A DNA stretch of 64,000 bases from Catajapyx aquilonaris (taxonomy: Eukaryota), in NCBI GenBank assembly GCA_000934665.2, contig KZ538122.1, positions 1 through 64,000 on the forward strand. The letters run 5' to 3'. This document shows, in pieces, positions 61 through 36,146 of this stretch. Each line of letters opens with the position of its first letter. Position 1 is the stretch's first letter. The notes below the pieces were generated by a model. The model did no database searches. It saw nothing but the letters and a program-made list of their open reading frames with translations, and was not told the origin of the DNA. Both the position numbers and the translations under genes were made by a program.

Positions 61-730
61 TAATGGGCTTTAAATAAAATAGTGGCAACACATCTCTACA
101 AAATCAGTGAAATGTAGGAAGTTTACACCTCTTATGCCACAGATAGGTTGGGTCTTGGTCTAACCTCAGGACATAATAGGATCGCCCCACCTCAATATGC
201 GCATGCGCAGTAAAGAGTAGTATGTGAGCTGTTGCGATCAACCGGTCTAAAGGTGATGTTTTCCAAATTTGAGCAAAGGTGCTGGTTAAAAATTGAAAAT
301 GTGTCATGAAGGGCTTTTGCAGGTTTATGGGGAACATGCATTGCCATATAGAACGGTTGCAACGTGGGAAAAAGCCTTCCGTCAGGGAAGGCAAAACATG
401 ACATATGATCCCCATCAAAATTCAAGTAAGGAACAAGTGGCTACTGTCTCCACATTGATGGAGAACGATCGCAAGTAGACAGTTCGTGAGTTAGCCAGTG
501 AGACAGGCTTGTCGAGTACAACTATCCTGAACATTCTCAAGAAACGTCTGGGTATGAACTATCCCAGACCTTCTTCACGCTTTAGACCGCTCTATATGAA
601 ATATTAACCAAACCAGGGCTGCCAATCACATTGACGAGTACATTGAAGGACTCTGAAAGTTTGAAGTTGCCATGTATTTCCAGTCCCAAGTAATTAAATA
701 GCTGCCACTATTTTATTTACAGCCCTTGTA
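61..730 (+). mobile_element. Internally deleted, decayed mariner (Tc1/mariner) transposon in a PDHA1 intron
   Basis: Imperfect TIRs: GGGCTTTAAATAAAATAGTGGCAAC (65-89) and GCTGCCACTATTTTATTTACAGCCC (701-725), with TA at the ends. The internal ORF fragment HEGLLQVYGEHALPYRTVATWEKAFRQGR...VSTLMENDR resembles the mariner N-terminal HTH. It has stops and frameshifts, and no catalytic domain remains. Confidence 0.8.
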
Positions 731-777
731 CATAGCTAAGTGATTTAAAGTGGAGGAATAATATTATAAATCATCCT

Positions 778-855
778 TATGGAGAACTTCGGGAGCCCAT
801 TCGTAAGTATGGATCGTCGTAGGTCGGGTCGTTCGTAAACCAGGGACTTCCTGTA
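778..855 (-). mobile_element. Solo terminus of a pogo/Tigger-like element
   Basis: Reverse complement reads TA-CAGGAAGTCCCTGGTTTACGAACGACCCGACCTACGACG, resembling Tigger-type ends with repeated TTACGA motifs. The partner end was not found in the window. Confidence 0.5.
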
Positions 856-1089
856 CTGATATTAATGACCTGTAATTGTTTATTTCATTCTAAATAATGT
901 TGAGTGTGATTGTTGCCCATTGCGACATCAGTACGGTTCTCTGGTTGAAACAATAATACTGTTGCAGTTTAGTACACATGTTGTAAAAGGAATTAAATCC
1001 CTTAATTAGATGGTAAAAATCTAACACTGATCAATCAAAACATGGATGTTGAAAGCCACTAAAATGCAATCACTCTGTTCACTCTTCAG

Positions 1090-1958
1090 GTTCCTCTAGG
1101 AGCAGGTCTGGCTTTTGCACATAAATACAAGGGCAATGGTGGAGTGTGCTTGGCTCTCTTTGGTGATGGAGCAGCCAATCAGGGTCAGATATATGAGGCG
1201 TATAACATGGCCAAGCTGTGGGATCTCCCAGCAATCTTCATCTGTGAAAATAATGGATACGGGATGGGAACTCCTTCTGACCGTGCCTCTGCCAGCACCA
1301 CTTTTTACACCCGAGGTGACTATGTCCCAGGAATTTGGGTGGATGGAATGGATGTTCTTGGGGTCAGAGAAGCAATGCGATATGCAGTGGATTACTGCAC
1401 ATCTGGGAAAGGTCCTCTGGTGATGGAGGCTGCCACCTACAGATACAGTGGCCACTCCATGTCTGATCCTGGAACTAGTTACAGGACCAGGGAAGAGGTA
1501 CAGGAAGTCAGGAAGACCAGGGACCCCATCACTTCCTTCAAGGAAAAGATGTCCGAGAACAACATCATCACTCAGGATGAGATCAAGGTAATGAAGGTTT
1601 CTGTGGTGTAGGAAATGAATGCTTGCAAACATAACCAAAAATGGTGAGGAGGATAGTGTCTCTATTCAACAAGTGTGGCATTACATTATTGGGGCAACTA
1701 CGACTCGTAGTTTAATGTACACACTCCCTTCTTTGGCTGGTCATTAAAATTCAAGTGACATTCTTACAGGCAATAGAGAAGGATTGCCGCACACAAGTTG
1801 ATGCTGCAGTCAAGGTGGCCAAGGAGGAGAAGGAGATTGGCATGGAGGAGTTGGCAGGGGACGTCTACGTTGAGTTCCTGGAGGGAACTATACGTGGTCT
1901 GACTCCCTTTGAATCTCTGCAGCACAAGAGAGTTGGACCAGCTGTTAATGCCAAATAA
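1090..1958 (+). CDS. PDHA1: Pyruvate dehydrogenase E1 alpha subunit, last two exons (5' part outside the window)
   Basis: Exons 1090-1587 and 1770-1958 with GT-AG boundaries. TPP-binding motif GDGAANQGQ...CENN and phosphorylation loop [23 protein letters not shown] at 2072 and 2274. Confidence 0.97.
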
Positions 1959-2679
1959 TCTAAGCCTTTATGAGAAACAAAAATACTCTCACATTACAGT
2001 GACCAGTACCCACGACTTGTTAGTGAGAGCATTACACTATTGCTTCTTTTAAAATGACAGTGCTAATGCCGAATAAATCCAGTGCCTGACATAGTATGCT
2101 CACTTCAACTTATATTAGATGCATTAGTCATGCAACATGGTAAAGTTCTAGTCAGCCTGTGATGTTAAGCTGAGTTAATTGTAAGTCTCAGAAGGATGAA
2201 AATACTTGTACCAAAGGAACAACTATAAATTTTTATAAATGGACCAGGTTTTTATTTGTGGCAGTTTTGCATGAATAAAATTTCAGACAGCAGGATACAC
2301 ATCCATCCAACGTGAGATGAAAGTGAAATGGCTTGTTCCCGTCAGGGCGTCAGAGGTCAGACATCACGTGTGGTATGCAACTGGTAGTTTATTAGTACTT
2401 CAGCACACATTAATTTTTTGGGGCTTGGTTTTGGCCCACCTGGTCTATTGCTAATTGCAGTGAATCATTCACATGTGACTCGCAGATTGAGCGCAGAGCG
2501 CGAAAAGCAGACGCTATCGACAAGCTACCACCAAATTTTTGTAATTCATGCACATTTATTTGGCTTTGTGGCGATTAAAATTAATGTTTTACTCATTGAG
2601 CTGTTGAATCGCGTGTAAAGGTGTGAGTTTCGACATATGAATTGCTGAGCATGCCACTTCCACCCTGCAACGGAACTGG

Positions 2680-2740
2680 AGGACTTCCGGTATTCGATTC
2701 CAATATGGCGTCACACTAAAGGCGGCCATATTTTTTTCCA
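2680..2740 (+). promoter_or_regulatory. PELP1 core promoter region
   Basis: CpG-containing patch about 100-160 bp upstream of the ATG, with an ETS-like ACTTCCGG and YY1-like CAATATGGCG / GCCATATT motifs. Motif match only. Confidence 0.4.
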
Positions 2741-2839
2741 ATCTGATCTCCACGCCTAGAAGCAGTTTCCTGCGCTGTGCTTCTTCGATCCTTTTCTGAG
2801 TTGGGGGTATCGGAAGCTGCCCAGTCCAGGAGAGAGAGG

Positions 2840-5800
2840 ATGGAGGGCTTGCTGAGCCTCTACCATCCAGTGGTGGTGGAGGACAAGTGGAATGAGAGGG
2901 TGGTCAGGCAGTACCTCGGGGCGTGCAGGTCGCACCAGACCTTCTCCAGGACTGTGAGTTGGATTGTTTTAAGTGGTGGATGTTCATGAGCACGTGTGTG
3001 GCTGATGCAAACCGTGTCTTTTTAGAGTTGCGCCAACTTGCAACCAGTCGTGGGGTCCATCAATGCATTCCTCAGCGTGCAGTCCACAAGGTGGGTACAA
3101 GGTGGCCAGACATGAGAGTGATGTGTGCACATGGTAGGGCTTTGGCCAGGATTTTAATGTGCATAATCATCATCCATGGTTTTTGGTACCGTACACTTGA
3201 ATTCACCGAACAGAAAAGCTTTCCTGAGTAGAAGATGCCCTAAATGTCATGAAGACAACCCCATTGCCCTGTGAACCAGACTTAAATAAGCTACAGGCTT
3301 GTCAGAAGGCATACTTGTCTCTTAAGAAAATGTGGTTCCATTTGCAATTGGACACTTGTGGGTAGGCTGAGGGTTATGCCAGCCACCAATCGAGCATGCT
3401 AGGCTGTCCTGATCATAAACACTTTTCTCTCGAAAAGTAATAAATCTCAGAAGCGCGAGCGTTATCTAGTGCACTCGATTTGAAGTACAATGTCATCACT
3501 ATTGACACATGTGAAGTCCACTAATTTATCAGGGCAGTGTTAAGGCCATTTCACAATAAGATTTTGCGGCAGCGGCAAGCGGCAAACGCGTGCAACGCCA
3601 ATTGTTATTAATTATTGGCAATAATAAATATAAATAAGAAATATGCCGCAACGCGCGCCGTTTGCCGCGCGACATTTTTTTGTGAAATGGCCTTTACAAA
3701 TTTCAAACATTTTGCAGAGCTGCAACTTTGAAAGTTGGGAATGTCAAGTGTAGTGTAGCCTTAAGCTAACAAAACCCACACATTCTGTTGTGGGATTTTT
3801 TGTATACTGTATCTTGCTTTGTATTAGCTATGTACAGTACATGCATTTGTGGCACTTTGTTATGTAAACGTAGGAATGTTTTAAAGCGTAGTGAGAGTGG
3901 TTTTTAAAATTTGGTTGTAAAATATACTAGAATGAGATCACTTAAATTTCAGATTTCACGGGCTGCTGGTACTGCAGGCTGTGGTGGGCCAATGTTCCAC
4001 ACAAGTGTTTGAGGAGAATGTAATTGGATGGATGCAGCATTGCATAAAGGCAATGCAGGAAAAGGGAGACTCATTTTCACTTGCTGCAGATGTGCTATGC
4101 CAGCTTCTGGAATCATCATCGCAGTTTCCCGAGTTCACCAAAAAGATATCTTCCACTATCATAGCGCCAGCTATTTCTCACATTGCCAATGCACCAACTC
4201 AGGTACGATTTCTAATGGCATGATAAATTTTGGTGTCATGCTTATATTACGCGTATGTGCAAACGATTTATTGTACTTTGTATTGTCCATATACAGGGTT
4301 TGCATGCTGCGCTTCGACTACTTCTGATATCCATGGAGAAGTATCGAGGTCCTTGTGTGCAGTCCAAGGCACAAATTGTAAAGCTGTTGCTGCTGATGCT
4401 GGACCGTGAGGAAGAGTCTGTTATTGCTCTTGCGTCTGATTGCTTCTCCTTGCTACCACAGATAGGGGGTGGGGGCAACCTTGGAGAGACTTACAAGGCT
4501 GAATGGAAGTCCTGCACAGAATCATTTTTGGGTTCTTTGCATGAAACCTTAAACCAACTCTATGAAGATGTGAACCTGATGCAAAGCTCTGAAAATATAA
4601 AGACTCGCCTTCCATTGCCAGCCGTGAGTGGGAAAAGTCCAGTGGAGAAGCTTGTCCAGCTGAAGATACGCTTTGTAAATCTGTGCCAATGTCTCGAGGC
4701 ACTTCTACGGTAGTAAACTGAGTGACACCTGTACATTGTCTGAAGGGAATGGTACTAATTTGAGAACATGTTGCAGGAATCCGTTTCCCGTGGCAAAGGC
4801 AGTTCCAGTTGGCGCCATATTTGATCTGATATGCCGCAGCCTGGATGTCAATTGCAAGACGCTGGGAAGCAGACTGGTAGAAGCATTAACTATAGGTGCA
4901 GTGCTGCCACAGATTCACACTGCTGTGCTTTGCCTACTGGATGGTCTCATAGCATGGTAATAGACTAGTAAGACTGGTGATAAGGAAACAAGTACACTCT
5001 CTGGGCTTCATTCCAGCTGTGAAGCTAATCTGTATCCACAAGCACTACTGATCAACAAGCTTGTCCTGGTTACTCTGAAATGGACATCCCCCGATGCACG
5101 AACATATGGTGTGTCCCAACCATATGAGTAAGTGTAATGGAGAGAAACATTTTTGAATGTGTGATTGAGCATTCTTGCAGGCATGCTTGATTGTTTGAAC
5201 CTTTACACTTTTAATATATTGTAATATTTCACCTAGGTCTCTTCGCTGCACTGCATATCGTGTACTTCAATCCTGGCTCCAAGTGTCCAGAGCTGGGAGC
5301 TTGGTTGAATCATTTGCAAAGGATCTTGTGTCTGAGGCCATATCTGACTGCAAGCCACTAAAGGCGTCTGCAGTGCGACTCCACACCACCCTAAAGACCT
5401 CCAGAAAGCGTAAGAAGCACCAGCAGCCACAACCAGAAGAGCAAACATGGCATCGCAAAGTGAACTTGACAGCAAATGAGGAAGTTTGCTCTGAAGCCCT
5501 GAAGGCCCTTCAGTGTCTCCTCTACTCAGGTGGATCTTCCATGAAGGCTGTGTCCCACCAGGAACTCCACCAGATGGCGCTTGGCATCTTGCTTGAACTG
5601 CAGAGAGGACCTGAACCTTTGCCAATACCATACTCAAGTGTGGTCTGTAGGCATGAGTTATACAAGCTGCTCCTAGCACTTGTGCTTAACCCACACCCAA
5701 AATGGCCACCTCCGTTACATATGGCTGCATCTGTCTTCAGTAGGGGATTGCAGGACCCTGCACTTGAGGTTGCCAAAGCTTGCACCTTGGCTATGGCTGT

Positions 5801-6482
5801 GACAGAAAAGATCATTCATCCTGTGGCACAGACCATGCACTTCAGCCTGACTATGCATGATGTTGAGGATAAGGAAGAGGAGGATGTGGAGCAGGAGGAA
5901 GAAGAGGAGGTGGTGATGGTGGGGAGCAAGAGGAAAGGAGAAGAGCAGAGAGAGAAGGGGGAGGAGGAATCCAAGTCACAGAAGGTGAATGGGTGTGAGC
6001 CAGTGGTGTCTACTATTGATGTTGAGGATGACAGGCACAGTGAGCCTGAGAGGGAAGTAACAACAGTAAATGGAAATCCTGAGGTGATTTCAATTGGTAG
6101 CAGTGGAGAAGACAGTGATGGTTCTGTGCAGGAAGCACAGATTACAAACGGGTACGCTGGAACGAAGCGAAAGATTAAGGATGTAGACCAACCAGAAGGA
6201 GTCAGTGAAAGGAAGAAGGTATGTTCTACAAACCATGCTCATGCTGATTTCTTTATGGTTTTTAAAATTTAACTTTTATTCTGAAATTATAGTTTTTCAG
6301 ACAGTGGAATGGCTTTTTCTCTTCAGTACAGATTACATTTATGTAGCTGCGCCATCACATAAGACTAACAGAGACTTCATTTCACACAGGTGCCACCGGG
6401 AGAACCAGAAGCACCATTGGGACCAACTCTTGAAGAAATGTTGGCCACCTTTGTGGATGTGGAAGATATTAATGGACCCTAG
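2840..6482 (+). CDS. PELP1: Proline-, glutamic acid- and leucine-rich protein 1 (rixosome subunit)
   Basis: Exons 2840-2953, 3026-3090, 3953-4202, 4297-4709, 4777-4956, 5017-5127, 5237-6218, 6390-6482, all GT-AG and in phase. Leu-rich helical N-terminus, CRHELYKLLLALVLNPHPKWPPP motif, acidic tail and C-terminal MLATFVD, similar to PELP1 MLADFID. Confidence 0.9.
3543..3693. mobile_element. PIF/Harbinger (Tourist-like) MITE in PELP1 intron 2
   Basis: 13-bp perfect TIRs AGGCCATTTCACA / TGTGAAATGGCCT, flanked by a TTA target-site duplication (3540-3542 and 3694-3696). CpG-rich subterminal inverted repeats (GCGGCAAACG / CGTTTGCCGC). Confidence 0.85.
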
Positions 6483-7139
6483 GGTTTTCTTTACATCCAA
6501 TGATTCGTCAATTATAATGACTTTTAAATCACAGAACTGCTCTCACATTTATTTGCAAATTTTGGAAGTTAACAAAGACTGCAACTTTTGCTTTGGAGGA
6601 AGGTCCACGATTGTTACTTATACTTGGAAAAAATAAGTGTTCAGTAGGTGCCACATTGTAGATATCCTTGTTACAGTAGTAGTTCTATTGGACTCCTTCT
6701 CGACTCTTAGCAAAAGTTATAGCGCACAAAATGTTAAGAAAGCAAAAACCACAAGTTAAAGTATACTAATGTCATTGTGAGTTGTACATGTTATTTGCAC
6801 AAATCTGTATGCATTTCTTGCACTCTATACCAATAATTCTTGAAGAGTTCAGATAAATGTGATAGAGACATTAGGCTCTCTGGATAGATAATACTGATTG
6901 GAAGTGACGTCATTATGTTTGTGCACTTGAGGTTATTACAGCATACCAAATGAATGTCCTCTGTCTCAAAATATTCCTCTGCCTTGCATTTGTTATTAAA
7001 CGTGATTTCCAAAGTCAACATCGAGTGCACTTTCTCCTTGACTAGCAGTGTGTATCCCAGCACTGTTTTCCAGTGTCAACCGAGGGGGTTATTACCACTC
7101 CCCAAAAAAGTGCACAGCAGTTCCAGCCCAAGTGACACC

Positions 7140-7700
7140 CCTGATGCTGTGGACCGAACGTCCCGCGGACGTGCCACGACAGTCGCCGTGAGATTATATC
7201 CCCCTGGCGGGCGGAGGTTGGAATGTGTGTCCATTGGAGGAGGGAGAGGAGGTGGTTGGTGGTGGTGGGGGAGAGTGAGTTGCTTCCGTGCGCCGCCGCT
7301 AGACCCCTTCCACATGTCCAAAGATGGCGTCCAATGGAGGAGGTCCAGTCGTGGCGGGTGAGGCCTCGTCCATCCCTCCACTCGACCCACCCTGCCCCTG
7401 ATCCGCCCCTGGGTCCATCCTTAGTGGAAAGAGGGAATGGGAGGGACGGGGATGAGGGAGAGAGCGTCCGTTTAGGGGCAGGCGGAGGAGGGGACGCCGG
7501 GGACTGGGGTCGGGGGGTCCCTGCCGCGTGGTGGGGGACCCAGCATCTGGATACCAGTTGGGTCAGGCCCCATTGGCCCGAGGGGGTTTTACAGGCAGGG
7601 GAGCATGCTACGGGACTTTGGGCAGGAGGACTCCTCAGGTTGGGTTGCAGGGCTGGCCACTGGGGCTGCACCCTGATGTTAGCATGTGGCACCACCAGGA
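7140..7700 (+). promoter_or_regulatory. GC/CpG-rich promoter island around eIF2A exon 1
   Basis: GC-rich, G-skewed patch containing the eIF2A start codon within the YY1-like motif AAGATGGCG (7321-7329). Confidence 0.6.
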
Positions 7701-10700
7701 ATTTAGAGTTATTATGATGAACCAATGACATGATTTTCATCAACTACACTAGTTGCTTGGAAACGTCACACATGTAAATTTGCTGCTGTGCCATATTGTT
7801 GTGCCCCACATTTTAAAAACATCAGGGGCGGAGTATCGGATATAGCTGCGGTTCGTCTGTCATGTATTGCAAAGATATGCAACTTTGCAACATTAGGATA
7901 TGGTGCATATATCACGAAAGTTTTGATCGTCCACACAATGGACAGGCCTGTAAAAATTCATAAATAAATCAAGTGTGTGTCGTAACATATTCTTCCAGAT
8001 CAATAGATGCCATTTCTTTTGTACATTGTTAACGAGTGCTGCTGTTAATATATGCCACATTTTAGCACATATTTGTGACGCAAGTTGGTGTGCTGCTTTG
8101 TAGCCTTCGAAGGAAATTTGTACATAGTGGCATAATGTTGATTGTGTTGTGATATTGCACCATATTGTAATTATTATAGAGTACATTATAATGTTTCATG
8201 CAATTTTCATGGACTTTCAGTTTTGTTCACAAATCTGGCAAGTTTTATTGTTTTCTGTTTTTCCTGTCCCTTTGACCTGTTCATGTGCACTAGTGTCCTA
8301 GTGTTTACAAACACGGACCCTTACACACCCATAGTTTTTCACACCTGAAACATTGTCGAAAATGTGACGTCTTAGGCTACATAATGAAACAAAATTATAA
8401 CTTAAGTTATTTTTACAACTTGTGTATACATGTGTCTTGTGCACGTATAAAATCATTGTTCCCAAATTAATTAAGCACTGTCAGTTGTTGAAGGCATGGA
8501 ACACTTCTGACTATGGAATTTTTCTTCTGTAGTTCGAGGCTCGACAGGTATCTACCTTAGCTATGGCCCACCAAACTATGAAGCAGTCAACAAATTCACC
8601 CGGGATGACAGCAAAAACTGCAAGGTCATGTGCTTTACGAAGGATGGGAAGCACTTTGCCTGGTGCAATGGGAATGCGTAAGTACCAAAAAAAAGTGTAA
8701 AATTACTGATGAGTGCATAAACATTGTTATTGATATTCTTAGGGTCAAAGTGGCATCGTGTGAAACTTGGAAGGTGACGGTTGAAATTCCAAAGCCACGG
8801 ACGTCTGTGCTGCAATTCTCACCAAAAGGAACGCTTCTGCTCACTTGGGAAACCTTTCAGAGTGAGTGTGATATCGTTATGGTCTGAATTCATTTCATAA
8901 TTTTGTTGTCTGAAAATTGCAGCAACTCCTAATGACCCTCAAGGATCTCCAAATATGAACCTTTGGGATGTGGCAACTGGGAATTTGGTCAAGGCATTTA
9001 TGCAGAAGAAAGTGAGCGATTGGTAAGTTCACATTGTTCACATTGGGATTTGCTGAAGAGACTTGCGAAGGTGTCAGCATAGTTCAATATTGTTTGTTAC
9101 TTTGGTAGTAGCTGAAAACTGTGGGAATAACTTCACATATAAATAATTTTAAGTGAGTAAAAAGGTTCAATTGGATTGGGTAGTTGTAGCAATTAACTCG
9201 TGTTACTTTCCATTATCCCATAATGACAGTGTAGGGAAGCATTACCTCTCACCCCTCCTTATACCAAACCTTAATTTGTACAGAATTTGCAGCTACTGTG
9301 CTACTTCTCTGTGTACAAATCACATGGGAGGGCTTAACTGGTCCTGGTGAATAAAGGCACTGTCATTCACTATCATCTTGCACATTGTGAGTATAAGGAG
9401 AGGAGTTGTGTGAATGTGGCATGGCAGGCAAATTGGGCACAACCACATGTGAATAAGCCGGGTGGACATGCCATTATGTGGATTTCACTGAAATTATACT
9501 ACATCGTTTGGATTATCATATTACATTATCAAAAGACATGAAAATGTGTGACATTACACAAGCCTACATTATGTATCCACACTATCTCCTTTCACATAAC
9601 ACTTTCCACTGCAGATTGAATATGCAACTAGCACTAGGGATAGTGCAGGTTGGGGCAGGACACAGCAAATATGCAGTAGTGATGACTGACTGTTGGCTTC
9701 AAAGTTCAGCCAAAATAGTGGCTTGTGTGGTTGTTCATATTATTACTATTTGTTTTGATCATAAGTCAATCCAAACTGTGAAGCATCATTTCAGTGTGAC
9801 AGTAACCTGTATTGCATTATGCTAGATATATATATTTTTTTAAATAGTCCTTCTTTAGCTTCCCTGCTAAGAATAATATTTTAAAATACGACCTGGGATT
9901 CTTCTAGTCAATCTAGTCAGTGTAAGGCACCTTCAATTATTTATGGCCAGTAATTTGTAAGACAAATTAGAAATTAAAATCACTGCTGCTAATTTCAAAA
10001 ATATAGGAATATTGCGAACCTAGTAGGTTACCTAATAGGTAGGATTGCTTGTGAAAGAATTGAAAGGGGGCTTTTTTGTGATTCATAAGGGAATTTCACT
10101 CTGATGCTTTGTCATGCAGAAGTGTACACTACACACTCCACATCGTGAAAGCTAATTTTATTACTGTTAGAGTCAAGTAGGTATTGTATTGGCGGAAGAA
10201 ATGTGTCAGAAATGTTGCTGCAAATTCAATTTAATTATGCTTGGCTTAAGAGTCCCTTATAGACCTGCTTGCTATCAGTTAAGAGCAGTAACGGAATCTT
10301 TTAGTCACTTCTGAAGTAGTGAAATGCTTTTGATTTATTATGCAGGATGATGCAGTGGAGTGATGATGAACACATCTGTGCTCGCTTCCTGAACCAAGAA
10401 GTGGTCTTTTATGAAGAAAACAACTTTGAAAACTATGTTCATCGCATACACTCTCAGAAAGTGGCAAACTTCAGCCTGGCACCTGGCAGTGGCCCCCCCT
10501 ACCACGTCTTGTGTTACATGCCAGGAGCCCAAGGGCAGCCCTCAATTGGACGCATGTTTGAATATCCAAAATTTGAGACAGGGCAAGCAGTAGCAAACAA
10601 GAGCTTCTTTCAAGCAGATACGGTAGAAATCAAGTGGAATTTTGCGGGTACAGGCGCAGTGCTCACTACTTATGTGGAGGTGGACAAGTCAGGAGCTTCA

Positions 10701-13700
10701 TACTATGGAAAGCAAGCCTTGCATTACATGGATATTAAGAGAGATACTGCATTGGTGCAATTAGGTGAGTACACAAATATCTTCATACCAACCATTACCC
10801 AGAAACATTATCAAGAACAGCATGCCCTCAGGTGTCAAACTTGATTGCCGTGTCTGATTACAATCCAGTGTCACTCTGACCTGCTGCCTTTGTGTTTGGT
10901 GAGGAAGATATAAAGAAATAATGTTGTTTAGGACTGTTACCTGGAGAGAAAACAGTGGGACTTGGGGTATCTGAATGCTGCAGTGTTGTAGACTGCTGCC
11001 ATTTACCCTTTTATTTCCTAAGTTCAGTTCAGACCTAGTCAGGTGATAGTGAATTACTCATGTAAGCACAGTCTCAAGTCGATTATATCTGTCCTTTCTT
11101 CGGTTTTTTTGTGGCTCTCAAATTTCCTGCCATTTTCAGAATCTTGTCAACTACAAAGTGACAGAATACAATTGAGAAATTAAAACAGTTTGTCCTGAGA
11201 AGTTAGGGTTATTGGGGATGTCTATTGTTTTTAGAAATGTATGTAATCTGAATTAATTTCAGCCCAGGTAATTCCCCAAGTGTCAGAGGTTGAATAGTTT
11301 GACACCTTATTTTAGGTACTACGTGTGAAATAATTATCTGGTCATGATTTCTAGAGGTGGTTGTATTAAGGTTTTGGAGGTAATAAGAGTTGTTTTTTTC
11401 CACAGGGAAAGAAGGACCAATCTATTCAGTGGAGTGGAGTCCAAAGAGCACTGAATTCTGTGTGGTATATGGGTTTATACCAGCAAAGGCTACCCTCTAC
11501 AATCTCAAGTGCGAGACTGTGTTTGATTTTGGAACTGGTCCAAGGAATTCCATCTACTACAATGCTCATGGAAACAATATCCTTTTCTATCTTATGGGAT
11601 GTTTTCTGAAGTACAGGCACATTTTTTCTGCACGATTATTTTTATTTTTATTTATTTTGCACGTTAATGTTATAATGTTATATGCCTCTTGTAACTTCAC
11701 CATCAGGTTATCATTTGGCATGTCAAAATGCATTTTGTAGCATTCTATAATTTGCTAAGAAACACTAATGGTATTATCTCAAATTTAACAATGACAATTT
11801 AAAATGTAACAAGATGTAATAAGCCAAGACCCAAAGAAATGGGAACTTTAATAGATTTTCCATTAGGCATTTTAAGTTTAACTCACAAGGGAAGTGTCTG
11901 TAGGTCCATCGGCCAATCGGCCCGAAAATGACACTAGGGGTAAATCGCAGGCCAGAAATTCATTGGTGAAAGTAAAAAGTTGCATTAGCCAATCGTTTTC
12001 GAGATATGGGCGACTATAGGTGCCCGGCAAACCTGCTCGGTGACAATGGGGCGCATTCGGCAGAAGGAATTATAAACAGTCTTCGTGGCTCAGTCGGTAG
12101 CGCGTCCGCGTCATGATCCGAAGTCTCCGCGTTCAAGTCCGCGGGAAGCGACTTTTTTTTTCCCCCTCCCTCTCTCGTCTCGGAGCATCGTTTTCTTTTT
12201 CTTTCTTCCCCAACACCGTTTATCACCGCATATCTTCCCTTTTGCAATCAACAGGAATAAATAAACAGCTTGCTGGGAAGTGCATTACTTTTTTTTTACT
12301 GAGCTTGTGACTATTAATTTTTCCGGGGTCTGGTACGTAATACCGAAAGACATAACACAGACAGAATAAATTTCCGACAGCTTTATTACCGAACATATAC
12401 AGAGAACATATACCTTTCCACTTTGTTCCTGTCGGTATTTTATCCCGTTCCTATTTTTTCCGTAGGTATTAGACCCGGGACCAATTTTTCCGAATATGAA
12501 GCCATGGAGAGAGTAGGTAAGCATCGGCAGAAGAAGAAAAAAAAGTAATGCACTTCCCAGCAAGCTGTTTATTTATTCCTGTTGATTGCAAAAGGGAAGA
12601 TATGCGGTGATAAACGGTGTTGGGGAAGAAAGAAAAAGAAAATGATGCTCCGAGACGAGAGAGGGAGGGGGAAAAAAAAAGTCGCTTCCCGCGGACTTGA
12701 ACGCGGAGACTTCGGATCATGACGCGGACGCGCTACCGACTGAGCCACGAAGACTGTTTATAATTCCTTCTGCCGAATGCGCCCCATTGTCACCAAGCAG
12801 GTTTGCCGGGCACCTATAGTCGCCCATATCTCGAAAACGATTGGCTAATGCAACTTTTTACTTTCACCAATGAATTTCTGGCCTGCGATTTACCCCTAGT
12901 GTCATTTTCGGGCCGATTGGCCGATGGCCCTACAGACACTTCCCTTGTCAGTGATATTCTCATGAGTTGAAGCCAGGTGCCTCTCTGAGTATTCAGAAAA
13001 TGGCAGTAAGCCTGATACTTTCACTAATTTTTCGTGCTATGTTGTACACTGGTTGATTCCTTAACTTTTTCTTACTGATGATCCTGGGTGGGTTTGGCAA
13101 TCTTCAGGGTCAGATTGAGGTGTGGAACATGCGCAGCAAAAAGATGGTGACATCTCTGAAAGCGCCAGACACCACAGATCTAAAGTGGTCCCCTGATGGG
13201 GAGCACTTAATCACTGCCACCACAGCTCCTCGCCTACGCCAAGGCAATGGTTTCAAGATATACCATTACACAGGTGCACTGCTGTATGAGAGGCCTTGGA
13301 ACAAGATGGAGGAGCTGTGGGAGGTAGTCTGGCAAGGAGTGCCTCCAGGGACATACCAGGAAGCTCCTGTCACCTACAAATCAGTCGAGGGAATTCAATC
13401 AGCACAACCACAGGGTCAGTGTATTATACTGCTCAAGGTTGGTGTGTGACACTGTTGTAAGTGCCATACTACTGTGACCAGTAATGTGAATCTGAAAATC
13501 AGCCTACATGAGGCCTGCATGGAACAGCCCTTTACTCCCTTTGGCAGGGAACTTTGAGTTAGGGATGTTCAAGTTATGGAAGTTCCACTGCATTGATATA
13601 AAATGCTAAAAAATATACTCAGAAAGTTGCACGTATAATACTTATTGCTGAACATACATATTAGTTTAATAAATATAACTTGGATGTGTGATTCACAGCC

Positions 13701-14591
13701 TCGAAAGATGTATACCGGCCACCAGCTGCCAGAGGGAAAGAGTCCACTTTCAAGCTACATGATGACGATGAGTTGCCTTCCAATCAAAAGGGAGATGGTA
13801 AGGTTCATGCTGGTTTTAAGAGTACATCAGAAGCATGTGCTATTATTTACTGCAAGTGTGGGTGGCACTATTCAGAGAGAAGCATCCAACCATTTGCTGT
13901 ACCGTGTTAAAGCTGTGCTGAAACCTTGGAATTTTGTGTTCTTAATAACTACCCAGCAGTAATCTTATTTCCACTCACCTGTGAATCCAGTCCCTGCAGC
14001 TGAACATTTTCTGTATCAAAGATGATAATCTGAACAAGGATGTTAATGACACTTCTACTTCCAGCCAACCTTACCAAGACCGCAATGAAGAACAAAAAAT
14101 ACCGTGAGAAACAAAAAGCCAAGAAGGAGCAGGAGCAGGAATCAAGTGAAATGAATGGAGAGGAACCATTGAAGGACCTAGCCTTGACTGGAGACCCAGA
14201 CCGGGACAAGAAGATCAAAAATATCAAAAAGGTATGTTGCATAGTAGGCTTTAAAAGGCAGTTCAGTACTGTAGACTCTAGATATAACACACTTCAAGGG
14301 ACCACAGAAATCAGTCTGCTATAAGCGAGGCCTGATATATCCCAATACACAGGCCACATGAAAGTATGGCAAGTCCAGCCTTTCAAGCCTGCCATAACAA
14401 AGAATCTGTTATAGCGGAGACTTTTATATCATGAGTCAACTGTACTAACAAATATCCACTTGCAGAAATTGGAACAAATCACCAAATTGAAGGAGCAACA
14501 ATCAAGTGGGAAGCACTTGGAATTGAACCAGTTGGAAAAGATCAAGAAGGAAGATGAATTACTGAAGGAACTCAGAGACTTAACAGTATGA
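7324..14591 (+). CDS. EIF2A: Eukaryotic translation initiation factor 2A (WD-repeat eIF2A)
   Basis: Exons 7324-7357, 8533-8677, 8743-8861, 8923-9022, 10346-10764, 11406-11576, 13076-13414, 13699-13797, 14065-14231, 14466-14591. Spliced protein reads MASNGGGPVVAVRGSTG...DKSGASYYGKQALH...FDFGTGPRN...GGFGNLQGQIEVW...TTAPRLRQGNG...LELNQLEKI, all diagnostic eIF2A motifs. Confidence 0.97.
12079..12152 (+). ncRNA. tRNA-Met(CAT)-derived pseudo-tRNA / Pol III cassette in the left arm of the foldback element
   Basis: GTCTTCGTGGCTCAGTCGGTAGCGCGTCCGCGTCATGATCCGAAGTCTCCGCGTTCAAGTCCGCGGGAAGCGAC followed by T9. A box TGGCTCAGTCGG, CAT at the anticodon position, B box GTTCAAGTCC in a CCGCG/CGCGG stem. Acceptor and anticodon stems are imperfect. 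Confidence 0.6.
12681..12754 (-). ncRNA. Second, inverted copy of the tRNA-Met-like Pol III cassette
   Basis: Exact reverse complement of 12079-12152, preceded on the + strand by an A run (oligo-T terminator on the - strand). Confidence 0.6.
14269..14442. mobile_element. Tigger/pogo-like MITE in the last eIF2A intron
   Basis: TA-flanked degenerate TIRs: CTGTAGACTCTAGATATA versus (reverse complement) CAGTTGACTCATGATATA. Internal CAAGGGACC and TATAAGCG / TTATAGCGG motifs typical of this MITE class. Confidence 0.65.
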
Positions 14592-15422
14592 TGGCAGCAC
14601 TGTTGACACACAAGATTTTTTCAAAAAGAAAAATTACATAATGACGCCAGAAGTGAGTCTTGGGGGTGGGATGGGGAGGCTGGAGGGATGGGACATGGGG
14701 TGTTGAAGCCTGTAAACATTGTCTATAACAGTTGAATATTGCGTCATTGAGTGTGTATTTATTTTCGGATCTGTGATTGGGTTATGAAAAATGTGACACA
14801 AATGTTTATGACAAAGTGGAAAGGACAACTGATGACTTCTTTTTTTTCTTTGCGGTCTTGCATACATAATGTATGCACAAATGTGACCCAAAAATATTGT
14901 TTTGGACAAGCTCAAAACAGTTTCAAAAGAGTATTATTGACCAGTGTAAATCATTGATTCGCTTTAAAAAAAAAGTGAGAGAAAAAGATTTCACGATTTA
15001 AGATTGAATCATTACATACTTACATATATTATACTTGTTACTCTTGTGTTTATTCACAACCTTCTTTTTTTGGCTAGTAGATAGCTGTTAGGTAGTAGCT
15101 ACTTATTCCTTCTGTCTTCATAACTGTGCATTTATTGTGCTTATTGTTAGTTAGATCAAAATTATATTTGCCGGTTTTTCTCTAAGTACTGAAGGTCACT
15201 TGGTTTCATGTTTTTGGCTTCCGTGTCCACAAAGCTTGTGCCTTTTTTGTTCTGAATTTTTTTGGGGAAAAATATAATAAGGTTGGAAAGTAGAGAAGAA
15301 AGATTCAAGAGTTATTTTAACAGGAGTGTCAAACAATAGTTAGTGTGTCGGTACAGTAGCATGTTTTTAGTGGGCGGGGTGAAAAGAAAAGAAGCAAGGT
15401 AGCTTTCAGTACAAAGTGTATT

Positions 15423-17361
15423 TTTATTAACAACCAGTGTGATCTCACAATTGTTGTCTCAGTTGCACTCACTTCAAAAGAATCAGATCTACTTTGGCAC
15501 CCTGGCGAAGCTTTGTTGCAAATTGCTTGTCATTGGGGATTTAGTAATGCTGAGTGTCGGAGTTGTCCACACTGTCCATCAGCACAACTGAAAATATATA
15601 TGTTATGATGAGTGCAGTATTTGCATGCCACTATTTTGTTTGCAATATCTTGTGTAACTATTAGATGGGAAGCAAAGAAAAAAACAGTTGAGATCAGCAT
15701 CTTGTTTAATTGCTATCTTTTAGGCTATTTTTCTACATTTAGCACTACATAATAACAGTCCCTGCAAAAGTTCTTGCTTTGGAAGTAAGGTCCCATTATG
15801 TTAACTGCAGGCTGTAACATTGCTTTGTAATCCCCCCTGCAGCACTACTGCTAGGCCCTTTGTCCCTCTCCCTGTGATCTCTTGATTTATTTTTTTATAT
15901 TTTATTATTTATTTTGTATTCTCGAAATTTCAAGGGGACTCCACAGGTAGGCATCCTGAATCAAAATGCATATAAGTGATTGTTACCAATTATAGCATAC
16001 TCTCTACCTGATGTGATGGAAATTCACCATAACTGAATTTGAGGAGCATGTAATCATGACACTTTAGAGCGAAAAACAATTGACAATATTTTGGTATTGG
16101 AAGCATTCGGTGCGCTTTAAATAGAAGTTACTCACCTGCATTGCACAGACTACGTGCATATACTTGTTTTGAGAATCTATGCATAGTTCATCATGCATTT
16201 ATGGGACCATAACCCAATGCTCCTAGAATCTTGTTCAGTTTTAAGTTACTTAGTTTTGAGTTATTAGCCACCCTCATGAGAAAGTAACCTTTCAGGGCAA
16301 TTTGCAAAAAATAATTTGTGACCAGGATTTGGCATGACTTGATTTTCAGGCGCTGCACACATGCAAACCTCTGTCTACAGTAATTCCTGATCCAGGCCTG
16401 AAGTTTAATTTAATGCAGCTTGTTTTGTGTCAAGTGAAAACTGATCATGGAGCAACAAAAATCTTAGCGTAATAAATTCTTGTCAGTTTTCATTGTCGGG
16501 CAATATTGAAGCAAATTGCACTTACTCCCTGCAACTCAGGCCACAGGTAGACGGACCTTGCCTCCTAAGGAAAAGTAAGTGTGAATGTGATATATCTGAT
16601 GGTTATACTCGTTATACTGTAGTATCCACTTCATTGCATAGCCCATTAGTCAGAAACTTGAATGTGATTATCCAGCTGAGTCCATACAGTAGTATGGGCT
16701 TGAGATTTGGCAATGATATGAAATACTTGGAGATGTGATATGGAGTGATATCTCATGCAGGTTTGTAACCTTTACAGCCTCCTCCCCACCCTCCTTGTCA
16801 TGCAGTTGTGCAAGGCCACACTTGCCTAACAAAAAGTAAGTGACTGTGTGTTGACGGTGTTCTCCCAACTTTAACTCTTTCCACACACACACACACAATG
16901 GGCTTTTCACTGAAATTGCTACTACATTTTCAGGTACCACGGCTCCATTGCAACATGCGAGTGTGGCATAGTTTACAGATCAGCTCTAATCCAAAGTGGA
17001 TCCCACTGCTTGCTTTTCCCAAGCTCTTTGTAACAAATAAATAATTGGAACTTCTCTAGCTCCCTTAGGAAAAAAGAGTGGCTGTGTGTATACTGTATAG
17101 GCCTTCAATAATGCAAGCAGTATAGTGCCCACTGAAAAAGTCATTGCACACAATTGTTGTAAAGTATCATTGCAACCATCTCAACCATAACGAGTTTATC
17201 ACACTGATACATGCTCTCGTAACCAGTGTACAGTTTGTGATGTAATAACGAGTAAACTCACGTCGTTTCTTTATTGATCCAACTTCAAGTGGCCAACACT
17301 TGTTAGTTTTGAAGGTTTGGAATTCCCCTCTCCTTCTTGACTGCACCAAGATGGCCGGCAT
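15423..17361 (-). pseudogene. Putative spliced, degenerate integrase-like (GIN1/Ginger-type) gene
   Basis: Chain of AG-GT bounded segments: 17361-17262, 17063-16938, 16825-16770, 16564-16526, 16397-16289, 16222-16136, 16061-16008 and 15587-~15470, then AATAAA at 15428-15423. Spliced peptide has LAQLHDKEGG..YLWPEL..WIRNYCRQRFACVQ (integrase Zn-binding-like) and RFSKQVYARSL (rve-like). In-frame stops are present and some donors are weak. Confidence 0.4.
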
Positions 17362-17429
17362 ATTAAATCATCTGAATCCGCCGAGATGACACATCCGGTT
17401 TAAATTTTAATCTAATGTAATTAGTAGGT

Positions 17430-17826
17430 GCTTTGCGATCGACCGGTATCACCCCCGGTGACCTGCCGGTGACGTCGGGGGCAATCGCCTCGGGTCTCCC
17501 CCCCTTCAGAAGTGAGAGAGCGCCTCGCATCGGTCCGAGAGAGAATCAGAGTCCAGGGGCCCTTGCCAGGGGAGGGGGCACCAGTTTTCGTCTCCCGCTC
17601 CGGCCTGTGGTGCCACCCGATCCGTTCCTCCCGATCGGAGCATCGAAGCGGGCGGACACCGGGGCGCCCCTCCCCACCCGCCACGGGCAGGGACGAGTCG
17701 GGCACCGGGTGTCGCGAGTTGGGTTGGGCCGAGGCCGGCACGCACCGACCGACCCCCCCGACCGAGCGGTGGTGGGTGTGGACCGACCCCACTGGGATGC
17801 TGAGATCCTCGCCGGGGAGAGGAGAG
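17430..17826 (+). promoter_or_regulatory. CpG island and probable 5'-UTR first exon of the FARP/Cdep gene; possibly a bidirectional promoter
   Basis: Very GC/CpG-rich patch ending in a strong donor GAG|GTGAGT at 17826/17827. The FARP ATG exon begins at an acceptor (TTTCAG|36066), so an upstream exon is required. Confidence 0.55.
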
Positions 17827-35671: not shown

Positions 35672-35744
35672 GGCCCAGTGGCGCAACGGATAACGCGTCT
35701 GACTACGGATCAGAAGATTCCAGGTTCAAATCCTGGCTGGGTCG
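35672..35744 (+). tRNA. tRNA-Arg (anticodon ACG)
   Basis: GGCCCAGTGGCGCAACGGATAACGCGTCTGACTACGGATCAGAAGATTCCAGGTTCAAATCCTGGCTGGGTCG forms a full cloverleaf: acceptor GGCCCAG/CTGGGTC, anticodon stem TCTGA/TCAGA, T stem CCAGG/CCTGG. An oligo-T terminator follows at 35751. Confidence 0.97.
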
Positions 35745-36146
35745 CAAACATTTTTTTCTTTTTTTAAAAAATTGGTTCGTTCATTTATGCAATTATCAGG
35801 ATGATGTGGTTGATCTGTTTTTTGTGTCATGTTAGTGGTTATTTAATTTTATGGCGTATGAACAGATCGTTTGACTCAGTGCGCCTCAATGTAATATAGG
35901 CCCGGAAGCATGAATGCCGACATGCAATCACCGTAATTGTCAATTATCGTTTGTCCACTCAGTCTCAATATCGCTCAATATGCTTTCGATATTATTATTA
36001 TTAGTATATTAGTATAATTATTATGTGTTGTCAATTGCTGAATATTTCTCGTCGTTTAATTTCAGGCGGACGGGCGGTAGTTGGAAGACATGGCATCGTC
36101 TTTGAATCAGCGGTAGTCTCCGGCAGAGTTGGTGACTGACCCAAGC

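Follow-up and report, generated by a model that had tools for sequence, protein, structure and literature searches.

What kind of element is formed by a near-perfect inverted repeat of about 1 kb that carries a tRNA-like sequence in each arm and lies in an intron of the eIF2A gene? The question is raised by one locus in the 64-kb window (the whole stretch of DNA analyzed, 64,000 nt). The answer favored here is that the feature is probably a non-autonomous long-TIR ("foldback", MITE-like) cut-and-paste DNA transposon that is served by a PIF/Harbinger-type partner and carries a captured tRNA-derived cargo.

The host intron

The intron and its neighboring exons are placed as follows.

11404..11576, + strand, upstream eIF2A exon (X5 contig piece)
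11577..13075, + strand, U12-type AT-AC intron of the eIF2A gene, 1499 nt (5' ATATCCTT at 11577; TTCCTTAAC at 13059-13067; AC at 13074-13075)
13076..13414, + strand, downstream eIF2A exon (X5 contig piece; translation with eIF2A homologues up to 70% identity)

A U12-type intron was recognized by a 5' /ATATCCTT splice site, a branch site TCCTTAAC located 10-15 nt from the 3' end, AT-AC termini and splicing in RNA, and all of these are found at 11577-13075. The splicing is seen in a 2070-nt contig of run X5 that joins 11576 to 13076, skipping 1499 nt whose ends are AT and AC. X5 is a run without stated kind that is read as RNA because the exons are covered, the unique intron sequence has zero depth and the spliced joint is present; the allele sampled may be with or without the insertion. 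In this one RNA-like run the eIF2A U12 AT-AC intron is spliced normally. The AT-AC ends, the U12 signals and the spliced contig together bear out the location in a minor-spliceosome intron that had been proposed in the initial annotation of this DNA.

Structure of the element

11881..12952, unstranded, repeat unit (bounds taken from the inverted repeat and family similarity; takes in the putative target duplication and target half-sites)
11886..12296, + strand, left arm (long TIR), first bases CAAGGGAAG, from the inverted-repeat alignment
12297..12536, unstranded, foldback centre (~73 nt of family sequence plus a nested insertion; high summed depth on both sides)
12537..12947, - strand, right arm (long TIR), from the inverted-repeat alignment

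The inverted repeat consists of arms at 11881-12296 and 12537-12952 that are 416 nt each, 99% complementary and separated by a 240-nt spacer, in good agreement with the ~415-bp, ~99% identical arms described initially. Only four of the 416 positions are mismatched (11884/12949, 11905/12928, 12038/12795 and 12190/12643). The element is 1062-1072 bp in length and almost the whole of it is made up of the 411-416 bp arms; its ends are flush and symmetric, in inverted orientation, and its predicted RNA fold is a continuous stem of -899 kcal/mol, giving it hairpin potential. The sequence GGGAAG(T/C)G occurs at three places in the left arm (11889, 12143 and 12275), no tandem repeats or subrepeats were found within 11881-12952, and no 9-bp direct repeat was found at the element ends. 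The longest stop-to-stop frame, among 15 frames of at least 50 aa, is 95 aa; since the element is without coding capacity, it would be moved in trans by a transposase recognizing its ends.

The centre of this copy holds a second, unrelated insertion.

12316..12325, unstranded, left 10-bp target duplication AATTTTTCCG of the nested MITE (direct repeat)
12326..12482, unstranded, nested MITE of a different family, 157 bp (loose ends with unlike flanks at both borders)
12483..12492, unstranded, right 10-bp target duplication of the nested MITE (direct repeat)

Contigs have loose ends at both borders of this insertion, 12326 (5-7 per DNA run) and 12482, and a joint at a contig depth of 703-942 skips 167 nt, from 12315/6 to 12483/4, with 9-10 letters shared. 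This MITE has imperfect terminal inverted repeats and is absent from many family copies; it would have inserted later into the centre of this copy. The inverted repeats noticed earlier in the spacer are accordingly present, but the foldback design does not include them: they belong to an independent MITE, as shown by the copies that are without it and by its 10-bp duplication.

A recently amplified family

Evidence that the element is repeated elsewhere comes from short-read contigs of three DNA runs (X1, X2 and X3) of one sample, of which 324, 271 and 385, respectively, align to the 64-kb stretch. In X1-X3 the summed word depth is 20-46 in the flanks and 169-17809 in the element bins, i.e. 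7-480 times the flanks, a summed contig depth that is not a copy number. Contigs at least 99% alike number 124 of 324, 99 of 271 and 162 of 385, and one 110-nt contig with 0 differences has a depth of 1365, versus 23 for the flank. The family boundaries are sharp: other copies begin at 11880/11881 and finish at 12952-12954, beyond which they run into unlike sequence, their loose ends agreeing with a consensus at only 0.49-0.58, and the jump in depth from 20-40 to hundreds or thousands coincides exactly with the element boundaries. The element belongs to an abundant multi-copy family that amplified recently; the single-copy outcome that had been held to count against it is contradicted by the contig depth, the fixed ends and the differing flanks. 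A blastn search of the 64-kb window found no further copy, its matches being the element against itself and one arm against the other in inverted orientation (next best E 0.69), and an exact 19-mer of the terminus gave 0 matches in metagenome contigs, viral contigs or literature text.

At this locus single-copy contigs cross from the flanks into the element, to 11917/11935 on the left and from 12925/12927 on the right. The interior is bridged by no contig, and the internal arrangement at the locus consequently rests on the assembly. This gap would suit a reading in which the family consists of single arms of ~490 bp and the palindrome seen here is a local inverted duplication, a pair of head-to-head insertions or a short-read assembly artefact; so would the short-read era data from which the assembly was made and the 108-183 contigs per DNA run that fit both arms and for that reason are not uniquely placeable. 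Such a reading is very unlikely, however, given that the single-copy contigs enter from both flanks with inverted ends and that these ends are flush and symmetric. In addition, the two halves of the centre (bins 12262-12335 and 12484-12557) have a summed depth of 678-6231, and the depth of the centre junction that is without the nested MITE identifies the centre as family sequence. The unit that has been amplified is best taken to be the whole long-TIR element, arms and centre together.

The tRNA-derived modules

12079..12161, + strand, left-arm tRNA-derived module (74-nt tRNA-like segment plus T9; A box 12086-12097, CAT 12112-12114, B box 12131-12140, T9 12153-12161)
12672..12754, - strand, right-arm tRNA-derived module (mirror copy, convergent with the left and identical to it, no arm mismatch falling inside)

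The inward-pointing A box, CAT, B box and oligo-T run that had been described for each arm are found at these positions, with the CAT at 12112-12114 in anticodon register; the module starts 198 nt inside the arm and its T9 terminator follows directly 3'. When both strands of the 64-kb window were scanned for an A box, B box and T5 pattern, three matches were obtained, i.e. the two arms and a genuine tRNA-Arg gene, and the same pattern had a mean of 0.0 matches in 200 shuffled windows. Global alignment of the tRNA-like segment with the window's tRNA-Arg (Arg-ACG, the one true tRNA used for comparison) has a score of 16 versus -9.2 +/- 4.3 for shuffles (z ~6), a score reached by 0 of 2000 shuffles and by 0 of 2913 random 74-mers. 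Judged by its sequence, the arm module is tRNA-derived.

What it encodes is a different matter. The initial annotation had made tRNA identity subject to a covariance search, and the Rfam tRNA model (RF00005) gave no match at E<=10, whether searched on 3 kb or on 116 nt. ARAGORN made no call of the cassettes at its default, 95% or 90% settings; at 80% thresholds it called tRNA-Met(cat) at 12078-12152 and c12681-12755, but at this setting it reports 36 "genes" in the window versus 23-39 in each of 10 shuffles, and the relaxed calls were rejected as tRNA evidence in view of the similar numbers in this shuffle control. The tRNA fold energy is no better than that of shuffles (z +0.63, with 143 of 200 shuffles folding at least as well), pairing is interrupted in the acceptor, D and anticodon stems, and the T loop has a length of 8 nt. 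The designation "tRNA-Met-like" is not established, because there is no Rfam match and ARAGORN responds only at noise-level thresholds; all that is left of it is the CAT in anticodon register. It is scarcely credible that the cassettes are working tRNA-Met genes lying in the repeat by chance, an idea for which the CAT register and the two 80% ARAGORN calls could be cited but which is opposed by the blank Rfam result even on 116 nt, the blank stricter ARAGORN settings, the noise level of the 80% calls, the broken stems and the 8-nt T loop. The module is not a valid tRNA and appears instead to be a decayed copy of a tRNA gene, with A box, B box and T9 intact-looking and the cloverleaf lost.

The tRNA-derived sequence with its A and B boxes is also what would be expected of two convergent tRNA-derived SINE retroposons, but this origin is highly improbable. 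The tRNA-like part begins only after 198 nt of the unit, and this outer stretch is at least as deep in reads as the tRNA-like part itself; the T9 terminator comes directly after the tRNA-like part; the unit has neither a tail of A-rich or LINE-like sequence nor tandem repeats in a tail; and the termini are inverted and flush. The earlier proposal of a DNA-transposon derivative that captured a tRNA/SINE head thus holds in two respects, in that a DNA element is involved and the sequence it carries is tRNA-derived, but a SINE head is not indicated, given the position 198 nt inside the arm and the module's own T9. In the DNA transposon favored here, the tRNA gene would have been captured as cargo before duplication or homogenization of the arms.

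The module could still bind TFIIIC or yield a short non-tRNA RNA. X5 contigs that match the family (e.g. 12003-12158) begin upstream of the tRNA-like segment, and contigs cannot show RNA ends; a Pol III product is beyond what they can reveal. Arm positions 12030-12178, the tRNA-like module included, are missing from one diverged copy (joint 12179/12804), so that the module may be dispensable or have been added later. Among the matches listed, one of 28 rows of arm variation falls in the tRNA-like segments, which make up 20% of the arm length, a figure that depends on the aligned diverged contigs; it might hint at constraint and is not counted here.

Target site and superfamily

11883..11885, unstranded, candidate left 3-bp target-site duplication TCA (direct repeat at both ends; inferred from one copy)
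12948..12950, unstranded, candidate right 3-bp target-site duplication TCA (direct repeat at both ends; inferred from one copy)

The arm mismatch 11884/12949 lies at the centre of the candidate TCA triplet, where a mismatch is expected if the triplet is duplicated, because an inverted-repeat alignment must mismatch at the triplet centre. The empty site reconstructed from this copy's flanks is ACTCAGT, a 7-bp palindrome with TCA central, and the five outer bases (ACT-N-A) are common to other copies. Insertion would have duplicated the 3-bp TCA at the centre of this palindromic target. A 3-bp duplication in a palindromic target points to a partner of the PIF/Harbinger type, and the fit to this superfamily, as read from the single copy, is suggestive.

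The usual PIF/Harbinger target-site duplication is TTA or TAA, so that TCA is atypical, and TIRs of 416 bp are long for this superfamily. No transposase was seen in the window in a Pfam search of 15 of the 41 frames of at least 120 aa, and a literature search for the maize PIF target motif gave no match. An autonomous PIF/Harbinger partner would be expected to encode a DDE transposase and a Myb-like ORF1 and to have the same termini as the element. The atypical TCA and the partner transposase not seen in those frames lend something to the alternative that the element is a long-TIR transposon that belongs to another superfamily or generates no target duplication, with its five outermost bases, ACT-N-A, belonging to the terminal repeat and containing a single chance mismatch; the similarity of other copies, which reaches 11880/11881 and 12952-54 and so covers the five outer bases, is in keeping with it as well. 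This alternative is a real contender although rather unlikely, for it requires that one of only 4 mismatches in 416 positions fall exactly at the putative triplet centre, a coincidence of ~1%. Moreover, a strong palindromic target preference of the kind known for PIF/Harbinger also explains similarity that extends into the flanks: published accounts describe a 3-bp target-site duplication with an extended target preference for PIF/Harbinger (PMC2836001) and integration of Harbinger3_DR into a palindromic 15-bp consensus (PMC3016246).

Possible significance

Read as a non-autonomous long-TIR DNA transposon whose cargo is a tRNA-derived, Pol III-like module, the element is a known kind in an unusual form. 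A far more speculative proposal, and a doubtful one, is that the family keeps the module because it is functional. Convergent pairs of Pol III/TFIIIC-competent units, numbering in the tens to hundreds, would then have been dispersed recently in an arthropod genome by a cut-and-paste element and not by a SINE, providing new TFIIIC boundary sites or a family-specific small RNA, and intronic copies, this one included, would give rise to ~410-bp dsRNA and from it siRNA against the family. SINE retroposons are known to disperse Pol III promoters and TFIIIC sites in genomes; if the proposal were true, a DNA transposon that is young and present in high copy number would be another means of doing so, and the paired convergent tRNA-like units would offer a natural test of boundary versus small-RNA-source roles. 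If the module is no more than inert cargo, the family is an ordinary set of lineage-specific repeats. Should the X5 sample carry the insertion, a U12 intron tolerates a 1-kb near-perfect hairpin. Automated repeat classifiers may misfile the element, because it crosses the rule of thumb that sets the Pol III head of SINEs against the TIRs of MITEs.

Comparison with known systems

No described tRNA-bearing foldback element or MITE was found among the titles, abstracts and passages covered by a literature search. The element shares features with several known systems. It resembles Tourist-like MITEs and other non-autonomous PIF/Harbinger elements in being non-coding, in its high copy number and near-identical copies, in its TIRs and in the candidate 3-bp duplication in a palindromic target. 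It differs from Tourist-like MITEs in its TIRs of ~411-416 bp and length of 1062-1072 bp versus a few hundred, in a candidate target-site duplication of TCA versus TTA/TAA, and in the tRNA-derived Pol III-like module that it carries. With Drosophila Foldback (FB) and other long-TIR foldback elements it has in common the very long inverted arms, the short centre and the hairpin potential. The arms of Drosophila FB elements are composed of tandem subrepeats and their insertions are flanked by 9-bp duplications, whereas the arms described here are without tandem repeats and the ends without a 9-bp duplication.

The Cassandra TRIM, a non-autonomous plant LTR retrotransposon, likewise has a Pol III-type gene copy in both of its terminal repeats, which are direct repeats (LTRs) with 5S rRNA sequence. 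Unlike Cassandra, the present family consists of DNA elements with inverted repeats in an arthropod host, and its Pol III-type sequence is tRNA-derived. SINEs have their tRNA head at the 5' terminus, where it drives retroposition; in the present element, by contrast, the tRNA segment is internal, has its own T run and is duplicated in inverted orientation within a unit that has TIR ends. HaSE2 of Helicoverpa armigera is a tRNA-derived SINE that is a chimera with DNA-transposon parts (PMC3272025), and SINEs of this type are similar to the present element in joining a tRNA-related segment with A and B boxes to DNA-transposon-derived sequence. In PMC3845634 the presence of a Pol III promoter and tRNA homology are used to separate SINEs from MITEs, and it is for this reason that the element, a probable DNA transposon with a tRNA-derived module in each arm, crosses the usual line between the two.

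Structure of the foldback element

The element at 11881-12952 is a non-coding inverted-repeat element that is present in many copies with fixed ends, has a Pol III-like module of tRNA origin in both arms and later received a nested MITE. Each arm (11881-12296 and 12537-12952) measures 416 nt; the two are 99% complementary, with 240 nt between them, in agreement with the ~415 bp and ~99% identity of the initial annotation; the four mismatches in 416 positions lie at 11884/12949, 11905/12928, 12038/12795 and 12190/12643. As a single RNA strand the 1072-nt element is predicted to form one continuous stem (minimum free energy -899.1 kcal/mol). Tandem Repeats Finder detected no tandem subrepeats in the arms, its sole row (11804-11823) lying outside the element. 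Of the 15 stop-to-stop frames of at least 50 aa the longest has 95 aa, so a transposase is not encoded. A blastn search of the 64-kb window detected no second copy, only self and inverted-arm matches (next best E 0.69). GGGAAG(T/C)G is found three times, at 11889 (arm tip), 12143 (tRNA-like segment, 3' end) and 12275 (inner arm end), possibly as transposase-binding repeats or as the remnant of a second tRNA-like 3' end; a T run follows the copies at 12143 and 12275.

The tRNA-like module

Features of the module (left-arm coordinates, + strand)
12079-12152, mirror 12681-12754: tRNA-like segment, 74 nt, inward-pointing in each arm
12086-12097: A box
12112-12114: CAT in anticodon register
12131-12140: B box
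12153-12161: T9 run

Scanning both strands of the window for an A box, a B box and at least five T in combination gives three matches, namely the two arms and a true tRNA-Arg, versus a mean of 0.0 in 200 shuffled windows. The inward-pointing A box, CAT, B box and oligo-T first described in each arm are confirmed. Globally aligned to the window tRNA-Arg, the segment scores 16 (shuffles -9.2 +/- 4.3), a value attained by 0 of 2000 shuffles and 0 of 2913 random window 74-mers, and it is collinear with that tRNA across the D arm, anticodon arm, variable region and T arm. The tRNA-Arg(ACG) at 35672-35745, a genuine gene with a T run downstream that served as positive control, is the sole tRNA reported by default ARAGORN in the whole window. 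Rfam at E<=10 gave no tRNA on 11000-14000 (four weak unrelated matches) or 12060-12175 (two weak unrelated matches), and the segment folds at -20.8 kcal/mol versus -22.6 +/- 2.8 for shuffles, 143 of 200 of which fold equally well or better. Because the alignment and pattern scores beat shuffles while the tRNA finders and the fold fail, the Pol III type-2 layout is significant and the cloverleaf decayed; the segment is tRNA-derived by sequence but no valid tRNA. Only with thresholds lowered to 80% does ARAGORN name a tRNA-Met(cat), at 12078-12152 and at c12681-12755, a result rejected as noise: with these thresholds the window yields 36 "genes" and each of 10 shuffles 23-39. The proposed identity as tRNA-Met is therefore not supported, and the label depends solely on CAT in the anticodon register.

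Copies of the element in the genome

Logan contigs from four coded runs were placed, at 85% likeness, on 11300-13500. The DNA runs X1-X3 come from a single sample, possibly that of the window assembly, and X5 from another study.

Depth and contigs in the DNA runs (summed contig depth is not copy number)
Run; flank word depth; element bins, summed; contigs; contigs at least 99% alike
X1; 26-32; 899-12239; 324; 124 of 324
X2; 20-23; 169-7105; 271; 99 of 271
X3; 37-46; 1625-17809; 385; 162 of 385

One 110-nt contig with 0 differences from the window has a depth of 1365 (flank 23). These data are taken to mean no more than tens to hundreds of copies, of which many are nearly identical, hence a recent burst. 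Other copies start at 11880 or 11881 and stop at 12952-12954, beyond which their sequences differ (consensus agreement of the loose ends 0.49-0.58). At the locus itself, the flanks are linked to the element by single-copy contigs (4.8 kb and 1.4 kb) that reach 11917/11935 on the left side and start at 12925/12927 on the right; this supports the two junctions as well as the inverted orientation of the ends. The interior is bridged by no contig, its arrangement here being that of the assembly; since both halves of the centre (678-6231 summed depth) and the centre junction (703-942) are found at high depth, the centre, and hence the foldback arrangement, belongs to the family. The element is thus not single-copy, and the assembly artefact that had been considered at the outset is unlikely. 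At 11981, 11993, 12067 and their mirrors both arms share letters unlike those of many family contigs (all 8-11 contigs placed at 11993 have G), so one set of subfamily markers is common to both arms, consistent with copying of a foldback master or with homogenisation between the arms.

A diverged copy (contigs of 841 and 860 nt at a depth of ~20, i.e. single-copy; 20 differences in 149 nt, 13%) joins arm position 12029 to 12179. The absent block, 12030-12178 (mirror 12655-12803), is 149 bp and comprises the module plus 49 nt upstream. Because CTCGG is present at 12036-12040 and a second time at 12179-12183, the block may reflect a microhomology deletion or an old insertion. From this one diverged copy, the module may be dispensable or may have been gained later.

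Features of the centre
12326-12482: nested unit, 157 bp, imperfect terminal inverted repeats
12316-12325 and 12483-12492: perfect 10-bp direct repeat AATTTTTCCG flanking the nested unit

Contigs at a depth of 703-942 link 12315/6 straight to 12483/4, skipping 167 nt, with 9-10 letters fitting both sides. In each DNA run 5-7 contigs match from 12326 on with different sequence before it, and a 791-nt X5 contig has 12326-12482 in another context. Since contigs skip the unit, other contexts carry it and a direct repeat flanks it, the unit is a nested MITE of a separate family with a 10-bp target duplication, missing from many foldback copies. The inverted repeats initially noted in the spacer are thus present, as parts of this MITE and not of the foldback design. 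A 10-bp duplication is within the range of Mutator-like elements.

Ends and proposed mode of movement

On the top strand ACTCA/CAAGGG forms the left end and CCCTTG/TCAGT the right end, with a TCA direct repeat at 11883-85 and 12948-50 whose middle base is the arm mismatch 11884/12949. This mismatch is expected from a target duplication, because the middle base of a duplicated triplet necessarily mismatches when the two arms are aligned as an inverted repeat; the chance that one of 4 mismatches in 416 falls there is ~1%. Without the insert and one TCA the site would read ACTCAGT, a 7-bp palindrome, and the five outer bases are common to other copies, which fits a strong target preference. PIF/Harbinger elements are described as making 3-bp duplications, with target preferences that extend over 9 bp in plants and 15 bp in vertebrates (PMC2836001), and the integration target of Harbinger3_DR is reported to be a palindromic 15-bp consensus (PMC3016246). 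Since a candidate 3-bp duplication here lies within a palindromic, apparently preferred target, a partner of PIF/Harbinger type is favoured from the terminal sequences at roughly even chances, the duplication being seen in one copy only. The usual duplication of this superfamily is TTA/TAA, not TCA, and arms so long are unusual for it. Pfam found no transposase in 15 of the 41 window frames of at least 120 aa, only E1 dehydrogenase, PELP1, eIF2A, FERM and AKAP7 domains. A 930-aa open frame at 47324-50113 (+) has no Pfam match at E<=0.01.

Capture of a tRNA gene or pseudogene may have occurred in an ancestor, ahead of the duplication or homogenisation of the arms, and a PIF/Harbinger-like transposase binding the termini in trans, with the GGGAAG(T/C)G repeats perhaps as subterminal sites, would move the element by cut-and-paste. 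The element accords in outline with the original proposal of a DNA-transposon derivative with tRNA-derived cargo.

The host intron

Features of the intron
11577-13075 (+): U12 AT-AC intron of an arthropod eIF2A gene
11577: 5' ATATCCTT
13059-13067: TTCCTTAAC
13075: AC end

The proposed minor-spliceosome intron is confirmed by these features and by a 2070-nt X5 contig that joins 11576 to 13076, leaving out 1499 nt with AT..AC ends. X5 covers the exons, and its depth is zero in the intron bins of unique sequence (11596-11817 and 13002-13075); from this and the spliced joint we read X5 as RNA. The element thus lies inside a U12 intron spliced in an RNA-like run, whose sample may or may not carry the insertion. 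Transposon sequence makes up 72% of the intron, which is excised precisely in X5. X5 contigs matching the family begin upstream of the module and are unable to reveal a Pol III product. Translation of the downstream exon yields part of eIF2A, with 81 homologues at E<=0.001 among 154 candidates, the best 62-70% identical; those named among the top matches are all insects. These matches point to an arthropod host, probably a hexapod that has no close relative in the database.

Relation to known elements

The element is like a Tourist-type MITE or non-autonomous Harbinger in mode of working and like a foldback element in appearance, but the tandem subrepeats and 9-bp duplication that define Drosophila FB are both absent. 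SINEs have a terminal head and a tail and the element has neither, its module not being at the unit terminus and no SINE-type tail being present, so that the module does not resemble the suggested SINE head. The initial reading was right in outline, its tRNA-Met, SINE-head and spacer-repeat details wrong or unproven. Neither a tRNA-bearing foldback nor a tRNA-bearing MITE was found in the papers searched, and a 19-mer of the terminus had no match in their text. Because Pol III promoter and tRNA homology serve to tell SINEs from MITEs (PMC3845634), the element straddles that line. HaSE2 is a converse chimera, a SINE whose 3' part is from a mariner-like element (PMC3272025). The element is an unusual variety of an established DNA-transposon type, and would be of greater interest if its Pol III modules were active.
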